Assembly (NCBI RefSeq): GCF_030013205.1
Contig: NZ_CP122648.1
Source of the DNA: Escherichia coli
GTDB lineage: Bacteria; Pseudomonadota; Gammaproteobacteria; Enterobacterales; Enterobacteriaceae
Direction: 5' to 3' (one strand)
DNA length: 64,000 nucleotides
Part shown: positions 26,104-32,381 of the stretch, one piece after another
Layout of the letters: every line of letters begins with the position of its first letter
Numbering within the stretch: the first letter of the stretch is position 1
Notes under the pieces: model-generated
What the model saw: only the letters and a program-made list of their open reading frames with translations
What the model was told of the DNA's origin: nothing
The model's database searches: none
Position numbers and translations under genes: made by a program

Positions 26104-26109
26104 ACCATA

Positions 26110-26149
26110 CGCACAGAATGTGATGTCAGCACTCTGTGCGTCTGCTTTT
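26110..26149 (+). terminator. Hairpin plus T-rich tract downstream of eamA, at the left edge of the PTS island
   Basis: Stem CGCACAGA / TCTGTGCG with a 15-nt loop, followed by TCTGCTTTTA. Confidence 0.4.
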
Positions 26150-26846
26150 ATCGCGGGAAAAAGTACTTTACCTGGAACTCGAAAATATTGCTGTAAAGTA
26201 ACGAATAATCCAGCGGAATAGAGTTACTGTCCACAGCCTGGGTCTGGATTTTAAGTATGGGATCCCGTGGGCTGATCCGTAAAATACTGGCGATTTCTGG
26301 GGTAGGAAAAGTAGGGGAGAAAGTTTCAAAGGTGCCAATGATTTTGATCCCGCATTCGTTCTCAATATACGAAAATTTGGATTTTTGCATATGTGCTACG
26401 GTTAAATCAGGAAAACGTGCCACTGACATCCACGTTTCTTCTAATTGTGCTGCATTATCCTCAATGAATCGCAGTCTCTTTATGTAATAAACCTGCTCAC
26501 CAGTCACTAAATTCAGCTCAGTCGCAATAGGGGGTGAAGCATCCTGCACTTCAAATTTCATAATCTGACTTCCTGCCTCCTTGCCGCTTTTATGCGCAAT
26601 TTCACTGAAGCTGTTCATGTGATCAATGTGTGCAACAAAATTCTTTTTTTGAATATATGTTCCTGAACCATGCTTTCTATGAATAATTCCTTCGCCTTCC
26701 AGCAAGGATAATGCCTTACGCAGGGTATTACGCGAAACATTATAACGAACAGCGAGTTCAGCTTCTGACGGCAACAAATCACCAACATGCCATGAATAGC
26801 CATTGATCTCGGATTTAAGTAAGCGGGCAATCTTTTGAAAAATCAC
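26148..26846 (-). CDS. GntR/HutC-family transcriptional regulator (HTH plus UTRA-like effector domain)
   Basis: 232 aa; N-terminal GntR HTH (LPSEAELAVRYNVSRNTLRKAL); divergent from the PTS operon. Confidence 0.8.
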   Translation of the reverse strand: MIFQKIARLLKSEINGYSWHVGDLLPSEAELAVRYNVSRNTLRKALSLLEGEGIIHRKHGSGTYIQKKNFVAHIDHMNSFSEIAHKSGKEAGSQIMKFEVQDASPPIATELNLVTGEQVYYIKRLRFIEDNAAQLEETWMSVARFPDLTVAHMQKSKFSYIENECGIKIIGTFETFSPTFPTPEIASILRISPRDPILKIQTQAVDSNSIPLDYSLLYSNIFEFQVKYFFPR

Positions 26847-27044
26847 TTTTGCACCTTTTAAGAGCCATTGAAAACAAGGAGTTGAGTCCTGATTGGTTTA
26901 TCGTATGGTCGAGTCGTTTAATTATCACCCTGATGTTGAACAACTTTAGTGCTGTATTACTGTGATCAATGTACCAGGACGTATAGCTACTGCGGGATAT
27001 GATATTTACACAATGTAATCTGTTATATACCAGTAAGGGAAAAT

Positions 27045-27356
27045 ATGAAAAAAATATTGTTAGTTTGCGCTGCGGGCATGTCAACCAGTATGCTGGTTAA
27101 ACGTATGATTGATCATGCTAACGCTATTTCACTTGAAGTTAATATTTCCGCATTGGCGATTGCAGAGGCTAAAGGGAAAATTAAAAATAACGAAGTTGAC
27201 GTTGTTTTACTTGGCCCGCAAGTTCGCTTTCAGAAACCAGAGATTGAAGCTGTTGCACAGGGGAAAATGCCTGTAGCTGTTATCGAGATGAAAGACTATG
27301 GCACCATGAACGGACAGGCAGTTCTTGAATTTGCGATGAAACTACTGCAAGAGTAA
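27045..27356 (+). CDS. PTS EIIB component, lactose/cellobiose family
   Basis: 103 aa; MKKILLVCAAGMSTSMLV with the phosphorylatable Cys near the N-terminus. Confidence 0.8.
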   Translation: MKKILLVCAAGMSTSMLVKRMIDHANAISLEVNISALAIAEAKGKIKNNEVDVVLLGPQVRFQKPEIEAVAQGKMPVAVIEMKDYGTMNGQAVLEFAMKLLQE

Positions 27357-27431
27357 GAATCTAATATTATTAAACTATTACCTGAACTAACTTTTCACAC
27401 ATCATAAAATGGCTATGGCATACATGCTTTA

Positions 27432-29187: not shown

Positions 29188-30861
29188 ATGAATATAAAGA
29201 CGATTAACGTCAGCCTTTTGTCTTTTTCTATTATTACAGCATTGTTTCCGTTGAACGCGTTGGCAACAAAATTAACCATTGAGCAGCGCCTTGAACTGCT
29301 TGAAAATGAATTGTCGCAAAATAAACAAGAGCTGAGAGCAACACAGAATGAACTGGGGGTATATAAATCCCGACTTTCGACCTTTCAAAAAAGTATTACG
29401 GAAAATAAATACAAATCAGCCTCACTTGCTGAAATATCAGCGACATCTCCCGTCGCTGATAACATCAAAAATGAAAACGGTGAACAGAACTCGTCTGCCG
29501 CAGCGCATACTATAAATGGATCGCAGCAAGTTGCCGTTATTGAAAGTAAAGGCGACAAAACCACTATCGAAAGCGTGACCCTGAAAGATATCAGTAAATA
29601 TATAAAGGATGATATTGGGTTCAGCTATCAGGGGTACTTCCGCTCAGGCTGGGGTACCGGAAATCATGGCTCACCACAAACTTATGCAGCGGGTTCTCTG
29701 GGACGTTTTGGTAACGAGATGAGCGGTTGGTTTGACTTAACCTTAAATCAGCGTGTTTATAATCAGGACGGTAAAACGGCAAATGCGGTCGTTACCTATG
29801 ATGGCAACGTAGGTGAGCAGTATAACGATGCCTGGTTTGGTGACAGTGCCAATGAAAATATCATGCAGTTCAGTGATATTTATCTGACAACGCGAGGTTT
29901 TTTACCCTTCGCGCCAGAGGCAGACTTCTGGGTAGGCAAACATAAACTCCCGCAATATGAGATCCAAATGCTGGACTGGAAAACCTTAACCACGGATGTC
30001 GCTGCGGGTGTGGGGATTGAAAACTGGGCACTTGGTGTAGGGCTGTTTGATATGTCCTTAAGCCGTGATGATGTCGATGTTTACTCTCGTGATTTTACGC
30101 GTACCAGTCAGATGAATACCAATTCTGTGGATGTTCGTTATCGCAATATCCCGTTATGGGATGATGCAACATTATCATTAATGGCTAAATATTCCGCACC
30201 AAATAAAACGGATCAACAACAAGATAATGAAAATGACGACAGTTATTTTGAAATGAAAGATAGCTGGATGCTGACTTCTGTTTTACGGCAAAACCTGCAA
30301 CGCGATACGTTTAATGAATTTACGTTACAGGTTGCCAATAATTCCTATGCCAGCAGTTTTGCCAGTTTCTCAGATGCCAGTAACACGATGGCGCATGGTC
30401 GCTATTACTATGGTGACCATACCAATGGGATCGCCTGGCGTTTAATCTCTCAGGGCGAGATGTATCTTACTGACAATATTATTATGGCTAACGCGCTTGT
30501 CTATTCTCATGGCGAAGATGTTTATAGTTATGAAAGTGGCGCTCATAGTGATTTTGACAGTATTCGCACCGTAGTAAGACCGGCCTGGATCTGGAATACA
30601 TGGAATCAGACGGGGCTTGAATTAGGCTGGTTTAAGCAACAGAACAAAACACAGCAGGGTGTAACACTAAATGAATCGGCTTATAAAACGACACTCTGGC
30701 ATGCATTGAAAGTGGGTGAAAGCATTTTAGGTTCACGACCAGAAATTCGCTTCTATGGAACGTATATCAATATTCTGGATAACGAATTATCGAATTTTAA
30801 GTTTAATGAGAACAGCAAAGACGAGTTTATGGCCGGCATCCAGGCGGAAGTCTGGTGGTAA
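29188..30861 (+). CDS. Outer-membrane glycoporin of the LamB/ScrY family with an N-terminal coiled-coil extension
   Basis: 557 aa; signal peptide, then a heptad-rich segment ([35 protein letters not shown]); aromatic-rich beta-strand-like body; C-terminal ...AEVWW resembling the LamB-family terminal aromatic residues. Confidence 0.65.
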
Positions 30862-30879
30862 TCTATTTTAGTTAAGGAG

Positions 30880-32325
30880 TTGTGTATGTCAGGATTTAAA
30901 AAAGGTTTTTTATGGGGCGGCGCGGTAGCCGCGCATCAGTTGGAAGGTGGCTGGAATGAAGGAGGAAAAGGCATCAGTATCGCTGATGTGATGACTGCTG
31001 GCGCTCACGGTGTGCCGCGTGAAGTGACAGAAGGCGTTATCGACGGACTTAATTATCCCAATCATGAAGCAATTGATTTTTATCATCGCTATAAAACAGA
31101 TATTCAGTTATTTGCCGAGATGGGATTCAAATGCTTTCGAACTTCCATTGCCTGGACACGAATCTTTCCGCAAGGTGACGAACAGGAGCCGAATGAAGAG
31201 GGTTTAAAATTTTATGATGATCTGTTCGATGAATGCCTGAAGCAGGGAATGGAACCTGTGGTGACGCTTTCGCATTTTGAGATGCCTTATCATCTGGTGA
31301 CAAAATATGGTGGCTGGCGAAACCGTAAACTGATCGACTTTTTCATCCGCTTCGCATCAACGGTCTTCACGCGCTATAAAGAAAAAGTAAAGTACTGGAT
31401 GACGTTTAACGAAATCAATAATCAGGTGAATTTCAGCGAAAGCCTGTGTCCATTTACTAATTCCGGTATCTTGTATTCGCCAGAGGAAGAAATCAATGAG
31501 CGCGAACAAATAATGTACCAGGCGGTACATTACGAGTTAGTTGCCAGTGCCCTGGCGGTACAGACTGGAAAATCGATCAATCCTGAATTTAATATCGGCT
31601 GCATGATCGCCATGTGCCCCATCTATCCTCTGACTTGTGCACCCAACGATATGATGATGGCCACGAAAGCGATGCATCGTCGTTACTGGTTTACTGATGT
31701 TCATGCGCGTGGATATTATCCGCAACATATGCTGAATTACTTTGCCAGGAAAGGATTCAACCTCGATATCACACCAGAAGATAATGCGATTCTTGCCAGA
31801 GGTTGTGTCGACTTTATCGGCTTTAGCTACTACATGTCTTTTACGACACAATTTTCGCCAGATAACCCGCAACTGGATTATGTTGAGCCACGAGATTTGG
31901 TCAGCAACCCTTATATCGATACATCCGAATGGGGATGGCAAATTGATCCGGCAGGGCTACGTTATTCACTCAACTGGTTCTGGGATCATTTCCAGTTGCC
32001 GCTGTTTATTGTCGAAAATGGATTTGGTGCGGTTGACCAGAGACAAGCTGACGGCACGGTGAACGATCACTATCGCATTGATTACTTTGCTTCCCATATT
32101 CGGGAAATGAAAAAAGCCGTAGTCGAAGATGGTGTTGACTTAATTGGCTACACCCCATGGGGCTGTATTGACCTGGTTTCTGCCGGAACAGGGGAAATGA
32201 AAAAGCGCTACGGAATGATTTACGTCGATAAAGACAACGAAGGGAAGGGAACGCTGGAACGGATACGTAAAGCGTCGTTTTACTGGTATCGGGATCTCAT
32301 CGCCAACAATGGCGAAAATATTTGA
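30880..32325 (+). CDS. 6-phospho-beta-glucosidase (glycoside hydrolase family 1)
   Basis: 481 aa; GH1 signatures [21 protein letters not shown] (acid/base Glu) and IVENGFG (nucleophile Glu); probable ATG at 30886. Confidence 0.85.
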
Positions 32326-32352
32326 GACTTCAGGAAGATATTACGGAGATAT

Positions 32353-32374
32353 CAGGCTCTGTGATCAGAGCCTG
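32353..32374. terminator. Perfect 9-bp hairpin (CAGGCTCTG tgat CAGAGCCTG) between the glucosidase gene and marB
   Basis: Read directly; lacks a clear U-tract, so its terminator function is uncertain. Confidence 0.35.
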
Positions 32375-32381
32375 ACAATAA

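Follow-up and report, generated by a model that had tools for sequence, protein, structure and literature searches.

Escherichia coli has four cryptic operons for the use of β-glucosides, bgc, chb, asc, and bgl (PMC4488073). The bgc system is described in PMC3585215 as a five-gene operon that includes the IIB, IIC, and IIA components of a phosphotransferase system (PTS) and the phospho-β-glucosidase BgcA, and that is positively regulated by BgcR, a regulator of the GntR type. The substrates named in these two sources are cellobiose and the aryl-β-glucosides arbutin and salicin, with use at low temperature (PMC3585215, PMC4488073), and the latter calls the operon cryptic in that a growth phenotype requires promoter mutations (PMC4488073). 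Here, we analyzed a 64,000-nucleotide stretch of E. coli DNA (contig NZ_CP122648.1 of assembly GCF_030013205.1; hereafter, the window), in which a block of six genes at positions 26104-32381 lies between eamA and marB. We conclude that this block is, with high probability, the known bgc locus of E. coli (bgcR and bgcE-bgcF-bgcI-bgcH-bgcA; Neelakanta, Sankar & Schnetz 2009, Appl Environ Microbiol 75:2284), that is, an accessory β-glucoside system. The 2009 work is reported to add a porin, BgcH, as the fifth operon product, to describe a promoter point mutation that activates bgc, and to place bgc in E. albertii, with homologs in Klebsiella, Enterobacter, and Citrobacter. In E. coli, bgc is reportedly present in uropathogenic and septicemic strains, prevalent in phylogroup B2, and rare among commensals.

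The bgl operon (bglGFBH) is a cryptic aryl-β-glucoside system whose genes include those for BglB, a phospho-β-glucosidase of glycoside hydrolase family 1 (GH1), and for BglH, a dedicated porin of the LamB family. The block in the window resembles bgl in these features but has separate IIB, IIC, and IIA proteins of the lactose/cellobiose family and a GntR/HutC regulator, whereas in bgl the PTS is one EIIBCA protein of the glucose family (BglF) and the regulator is the antiterminator BglG. The chb operon (chbBCARFG) has a PTS of the same family, again with separate IIB, IIC, and IIA proteins; it differs by its AraC-type regulator, its GH4 hydrolase, its deacetylase, and a porin, ChiP, that is encoded elsewhere, and the proteins of the window miss all Chb equivalog cutoffs. 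Like ScrY of pUR400 and Salmonella, the porin of the window combines a LamB-type barrel with an N-terminal periplasmic coiled-coil extension, but it is not an ortholog of ScrY or LamB and is linked to a β-glucoside PTS, not to sucrose or maltose genes. Outside the enterobacteria, a lactose/cellobiose-family PTS, a GH1 enzyme, and a GntR-type regulator occur together in the Firmicutes operons gmuBACDREFG (Bacillus subtilis) and bgu (Streptococcus pneumoniae), and PMC3585215 reports that BguR, the regulator of the latter, is similar to BgcR and that BgcR is an activator. GmuR and BguR are repressors and their operons have no porin, in contrast to the reported activator BgcR and the porin gene of the window. 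From bgc itself, compared by description, no difference was detected: content, order, and regulator type are the same, and we read the block as this locus, carried by a further strain.

The match to bgc can be followed gene by gene. Gene coordinates were obtained from the open reading frame (ORF) list of the window and from the RefSeq annotation of NZ_CP080235.1, a record with 100% identity (wild-boar isolate W13-16, E. coli O139:H1), and the two agree. Both gene content and gene order agree with the description in PMC3585215, including the divergent GntR-type regulator, the porin slot being compared with the reported BgcH. In the uropathogenic E. coli (UPEC) strain CFT073, these six genes likewise occupy the interval from marB to eamA, with 96.5-98.1% identity per gene to the window. 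A six-gene block annotated as "PTS system, cellobiose specific" (c1955-c1960) has been listed for CFT073, UTI89, several B1 strains, HS, and SMS-3-5, and for none of K-12, O157, and other strains (PMC2831201); this block cannot be chb because K-12 has chb. The distribution agrees with that of bgc, in that CFT073, UTI89 (by the PMC2831201 listing), and E. albertii carry the block and the K-12-type site is empty. Hence, the locus is almost certainly one that has been known, and experimentally characterized, since 2009.

Several points weigh against this identification. It was made from a second-hand description, from synteny with CFT073, and from what the 2009 abstract reportedly states. The genes c1955-c1960 of CFT073 are most likely the six genes of the block; RefSeq at present uses C_RS tags for this genome. 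Database entries for the identical proteins and for the porin homologs bear generic names, none of them saying "Bgc." About 46% of complete E. coli genomes carry the block (see below), among them many isolates from animals and the environment, which exceeds the reported rarity among commensals. The CRP-like site in the spacer upstream of the operon has two mismatches, and its pattern alone occurs at chance level (28 matches versus 28.1 expected in the window). Finally, a scan for consensus promoters and terminators gave counts equal to the shuffle expectation and called neither of the hairpins that bound the block. A literature search on the bgc genes and the eamA/marB site returned second-hand mentions only.

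The generic naming of these proteins in databases could be taken to mean that the block is an uncharacterized PTS locus for β-glycosides or oligosaccharides, other than bgc and with an unknown substrate. We regard this as very unlikely: content, order, the divergent GntR regulator, and presence in uropathogens all fit the description of bgc, megablast gives one such locus per genome, and bgc is reportedly present in E. albertii, with homologs in Citrobacter and Enterobacter, both of which were seen here. With the block read as bgc, two claims of an earlier, sequence-only reading of the window fall away. The substrate, which it had called unknown, is given in the bgc literature as cellobiose, arbutin, and salicin (PMC3585215, PMC4488073), and the pairing of this type of PTS with its own porin, which it had called unusual, was already described, since gene set and order are those of the published bgc operon. 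Its gene assignments (a GntR/HutC regulator, IIB-IIC-IIA, a LamB/ScrY-type porin, and a GH1 enzyme) were borne out in profile searches, in which every family model matched. What the identification contributes is mostly annotation. The six genes carry generic names in RefSeq and UniProt, so that readers keep "rediscovering" bgc, and attaching the names bgcR and bgcEFIHA to the block would cure this. The further observations made here on carriage, selection, the E. albertii site, the sites in other genera, and the empty allele refine the history of the locus and open no new question.

The three PTS components are encoded by separate genes on the plus strand, as is characteristic of the PTS lactose/cellobiose (Lac) family. 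The bgcE-like gene (27045-27356) encodes a IIB protein of 103 residues, in whose translation a C-x-x-G-M-S-T-S motif with Cys8 (C-AAGMSTS) can be read; it matched Pfam PTS_IIB (PF02302, E 6e-19) and TIGR00853 (E 1e-24, with 86.9 bits versus a cutoff of 110). The bgcF-like gene (27471-28793) encodes a IIC protein of 440 residues, counted from the ATG chosen by the NCBI Prokaryotic Genome Annotation Pipeline (PGAP), and the open frame begins at a TTG at 27432. This protein scored 335 bits against the lactose/cellobiose-family model TIGR00410 (cutoff 236) and matched Pfam PTS_EIIC (PF02378, E 2e-45). The product of the bgcI-like gene (28821-29132), a IIA protein of 103 residues with an HAQDH motif (His76) in its translation, matched Pfam PTS_IIA (PF02255, E 1.3e-31), its NCBIfam matches being under the equivalog cutoffs. 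The last gene of the operon, bgcA-like (30886-32325, plus strand), encodes a GH1 enzyme of 479 residues with the acid/base motif TFNEIN and the nucleophile motif VENG in its translation. It scored 1035.6 bits against the NCBIfam 6-phospho-β-glucosidase model NF007154 (cutoff 624), and among solved structures it is closest to two phospho-β-glucosidases, 3pn8 and 4f79 (E about 1e-240), followed by BglA of E. coli (2xhy, E 2e-204).

These proteins also bear on the idea that the block is a second, chb-like chitobiose system, with a porin of its own for the entry of N,N'-diacetylchitobiose or chito-oligosaccharides. The PTS components do belong to the lactose/cellobiose family of ChbBCA, and IIA matches the chitobiose IIA model best (E 1.6e-30). 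However, the Chb equivalog cutoffs were missed widely, with 278 versus 760 bits for IIC (NF007634), 105.6 versus 148 for IIA, and 66 versus 157 for IIB. The hydrolase is the GH1 enzyme that matched NF007154 with 1035.6 bits, not a GH4 ChbF, and by ORF list and annotation the block has no gene for a ChbG deacetylase or an AraC-type ChbR. The substrates reported for bgc in PMC3585215 are, moreover, cellobiose and aryl-β-glucosides. A chitobiose system is thus highly improbable.

The porin encoded by the bgcH-like gene (29188-30861, plus strand) has 557 residues and begins with a signal peptide ending in ...NALA; about 120 residues of N-terminal coiled coil come next, and residues 147-557 form a barrel of the LamB type. 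The barrel matched the whole of Pfam LamB (PF02264; residues 147-557, model positions 1-378 of 378, E 1.2e-81), and residues 30-56 matched Sugarporin_N (PF11471, E 2e-6), which places the protein in the LamB/ScrY sugar-porin family. It is not maltoporin LamB itself, as the cutoffs of NCBIfam models NF006860 and NF009061 were missed (204.6 versus 394 and 118.7 versus 765, respectively). Orthologs with 75-83% identity were found in Citrobacter, Enterobacter, Salmonella salamae, and Kluyvera. When the porin was compared with all PDB sequences using phmmer, with E-values up to 10, no LamB/ScrY chain was returned and the only matches were coiled-coil noise on the N-terminal extension; in pairwise terms, it can share very little similarity with the sugar porins of solved structure.

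Upstream of the operon and in the opposite orientation, the bgcR-like gene (26148-26846, minus strand) encodes a protein of 232 residues from a GTG start. A winged-helix domain (Pfam GntR, E 1.4e-18) and a UTRA effector domain (E 9e-30) assign the protein to the GntR/HutC subfamily. All of its NCBIfam matches were under the equivalog cutoffs, and PGAP names it "GntR family transcriptional regulator." The divergent regulatory spacer between bgcR and bgcE (26847-27044, 198 bp) was aligned across six sequences, from two E. coli strains, E. albertii, Citrobacter koseri, S. salamae, and a Kluyvera variant. Three elements are kept in this alignment amid otherwise diverged sequence. The first is an inverted repeat, GTT(T/C)A-N16-TGAAC (GTTTA in the window; 26916-26941), which is a candidate BgcR site. 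The second is a CRP-like site, TGTGATCAATGTACCA (26961-26976), which reads TGTGA-N6-TACCA in the window and ends in TA(C/A)CA across the alignment, and the third is a -10-like hexamer, TATGAT (26998-27003). The bgcE ribosome-binding site, AAGGGA, lies at 27034-27039. Relative to the start that the -10 element predicts, the CRP-like site is centered about 41.5 bp upstream, which corresponds to class II geometry. What argues for this putative CRP site is its conservation and its position; bgc expression is reportedly CRP-dependent (Neelakanta, Sankar & Schnetz 2009).

A working scheme for the locus can be proposed. The glycoporin BgcH would provide the outer-membrane passage for β-glucosides such as cellobiose, arbutin, and salicin. 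Phosphoryl groups would then be relayed from phosphoenolpyruvate (PEP) via enzyme I (EI) and HPr to a histidine of BgcI (IIA) and on to a cysteine of BgcE (IIB), a route that we infer from general knowledge of lactose/cellobiose-family PTS systems. BgcF (IIC) would import the sugar, with phosphorylation at O-6 during transport, and BgcA would cleave the resulting 6-phospho-β-glucoside to glucose-6-phosphate and glucose or the aglycone. The divergently encoded GntR/HutC protein BgcR would activate the operon promoter, which has the predicted geometry of a class II CRP-dependent promoter. The protein families, gene order, conservation, and census underlying this scheme come from the present analysis; the literature supplies the substrates, their use at low temperature, and the role of BgcR as a positive regulator.

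The block is flanked by eamA (25204-26103, plus strand) and marB (32382-32600, minus strand). In alignments with genomes that lack it, homology ends after the eamA stop codon and restarts at the marB stop codon; therefore, the limits 26104-32381 (6.3 kb) are right. The sequence-only reading had described the block as an accessory insert, AT-richer than its flanks and bounded by hairpins, between two genes that are adjacent in K-12, and most of this held. K-12-type strains have only 30 bp between eamA and marB. The block has a GC content of 42.7% versus 47.9% for the rest of the window, and the GC content at third codon positions (GC3) is 0.375-0.47 in its genes versus 0.47-0.59 in flanking genes. 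Both hairpins fold, at coordinates near those first given. The left one (26106-26144) lies between the convergent eamA and bgcR genes, has folding energies of -17.4 kcal/mol on the plus strand and -23.3 kcal/mol on the minus strand (z of -2.7 and -4.2), and is followed on the plus strand by CTGCTTTTAT; a repeat search placed the arms of an inverted repeat here at 26102-26120 and 26130-26148. The right one, TCAGGCTCTG-TGAT-CAGAGCCTGA (32352-32375), lies between the convergent bgcA and marB genes, folds with about -19 and -20 kcal/mol (z of -3.7 and -5.0), and is kept in CFT073 and E. albertii. Because each sits between convergent genes, the two hairpins are likely bidirectional terminators.

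To determine how widely the block is carried, the block alone was used as a megablast query against 5,426 complete E. coli genomes. A match was found in 2,563 of these, and at least 80% of the block was present in 2,493, which corresponds to carriage of about 46%; the median was one copy per genome, essentially always chromosomal. The accessory status claimed in the sequence-only reading thus agrees with the distribution, the block being present in 2,493-2,563 of the 5,426 genomes and not in K-12. Spread on plasmids was considered and rejected, as the "plasmid" matches are mislabeled chromosomes of 4.8-4.9 Mb or fragments from one assembly. Some carriers have altered copies: ISKpn26 (IS5-like) and IS1A insertions occur inside the block in some strains, and strain LY180 has only 77% of it, without the GH1 (bgcA) part.

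In the K-12-type empty site, the 30-bp eamA-marB spacer contains a hairpin, GCCCCGA...TCGGGGC. This hairpin, downstream of marB, is shared by block-free E. coli strains from widely differing backgrounds and by Citrobacter sp. FP75 and Salmonella. Because the hairpin is common to Salmonella and Citrobacter, sequence comparison indicates that the empty allele is the ancestral arrangement and not a deletion scar, and the same sharing led us to reject simple deletion of the block as the origin of the K-12 state. The 3' arm and tail of the right boundary hairpin, GCCTGA.A.TAA, are similar to GGGGCC(A/T)GAA.A.A of the empty site, and the right hairpin may represent the ancestral terminator hairpin of eamA/marB in diverged form. 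A different case is E. coli 2017.17.01CC (L016, 2170-2640), in which a deletion starts inside eamA, sparing 333 nt of the gene, and stops 139 bp short of the right end of the block; this is clearly a secondary loss distinct from the ancestral empty allele. In some block-free strains, the eamA-marRAB flanks (25000-26103 and 32382-33500) are only 93.5-95% identical to the window, more divergence than core DNA of E. coli usually shows. The C terminus of EamA reads ...KVRG in block-free NCCP 13924 (L012), in strains with the block, and in Citrobacter, versus ...KVGS in K-12.

No signs of a mobile element were found in the searches made. By ORF list and RefSeq annotation, the genes of the block include no integrase, transposase, or insertion sequence (IS) element, a tRNA scan of the region found no tRNA genes, an Rfam scan of 25000-33600 (E up to 0.1) found no element, and a search for direct or inverted repeats at the ends of the block gave only the short matches expected by chance. 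A mobile genomic island in the sense of an integrative element or transposon was therefore rejected, there being no mobility genes, tRNA target, or terminal repeats.

The age of the block can be judged from E. albertii, to which one contig (L009) was assigned by exact protein matches. It carries the block at the same eamA-marB site, with genes 80-84% identical to those of the window, compared with 83-84.5% for the flanking core genes, and synonymous divergence between the window and E. albertii is comparable for block and flanks. Block and flanks have likewise diverged in parallel between the window and CFT073. The shared site and the codivergence with the flanks imply that the block is older than the split between E. 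coli and E. albertii. The claim that the block is an insert accordingly stands as to direction, the empty site having the ancestral hairpin, and fails as far as it implied a recent island. In E. albertii, a deletion of about 1 kb has produced an in-frame fusion of the porin gene with the final third of the GH1 gene (L009, 9001-11037), which encodes a protein of 678 residues with LamB and Glyco_hydro_1 domains; this is a decayed copy of the block at the same eamA-marB site.

Selection on the genes was assessed from dN/dS ratios, which are 0.02-0.11 in all six genes of the block, the same as in ydeE, eamA, marC, and ydeA. For the bgcR-like gene, the ratio is 0.05 versus CFT073 and versus E. albertii alike. 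These ratios point to an operon that, although labeled cryptic, is under purifying selection and is maintained. That the block is instead a decaying, nonfunctional remnant whose crypticity reflects drift toward pseudogenes is hardly credible: the cryptic label and need for promoter mutations (PMC4488073), the sporadic IS insertions, the partial deletions in LY180 and 2017.17.01CC, and the E. albertii fusion would suit it, but all six reading frames are intact in the window and in CFT073, dN/dS equals that of the core flanks over distances that reach and exceed the E. coli-E. albertii split, and at least 80% of the block is kept in 2,493 of the 2,563 carrier genomes. The small marB gene next to the block gave a dN/dS of 0.17 for the window versus E. 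albertii and of 1.58 versus CFT073, where dS is 0.02 and 5 of 72 residues differ; given the very small size of the gene, the latter value may be noise.

C. koseri carries the same six-gene cassette at a different chromosomal site, as does Salmonella enterica subsp. salamae, in which it lies between cysE and trmL, and the cassette is a transferable unit. Its arrival at the eamA-marB site would date to a common ancestor of E. coli and E. albertii, in which it would have been placed right behind the eamA stop codon without recognizable mobility genes; both the occupied and the ancestral empty alleles persist in E. coli. One could extend this to a presence/absence polymorphism at eamA-marB that is older than E. 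coli and is held by niche-dependent selection, for example in plant or cold outside-host phases versus the gut, the natural substrate possibly being another β-linked glycoside that needs the coiled-coil porin; we consider this extended view speculative and rather unlikely to be correct as a whole. In Kluyvera georgiana, a variant cassette (L007, 6266-11531; L008, 6265-11531) encodes the GntR regulator, IIB, IIC, and the porin (75% identity), followed by a HAD/Cof-type (S6PP-like) phosphatase. It lacks the IIA and GH1 genes, which suggests a different fate of the imported sugar phosphate.

Two features elsewhere in the window were noted in passing. Its first part (approximately 1-14000; L011) is a remnant of a Qin-type prophage that is broken by an IS66 element and contains truncated ydfJ, tail-fiber, and terminase genes. 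At approximately 55000-60000 (L010), a frameshifted autotransporter gene of the ECSE_1600 family adjoins hipBA.

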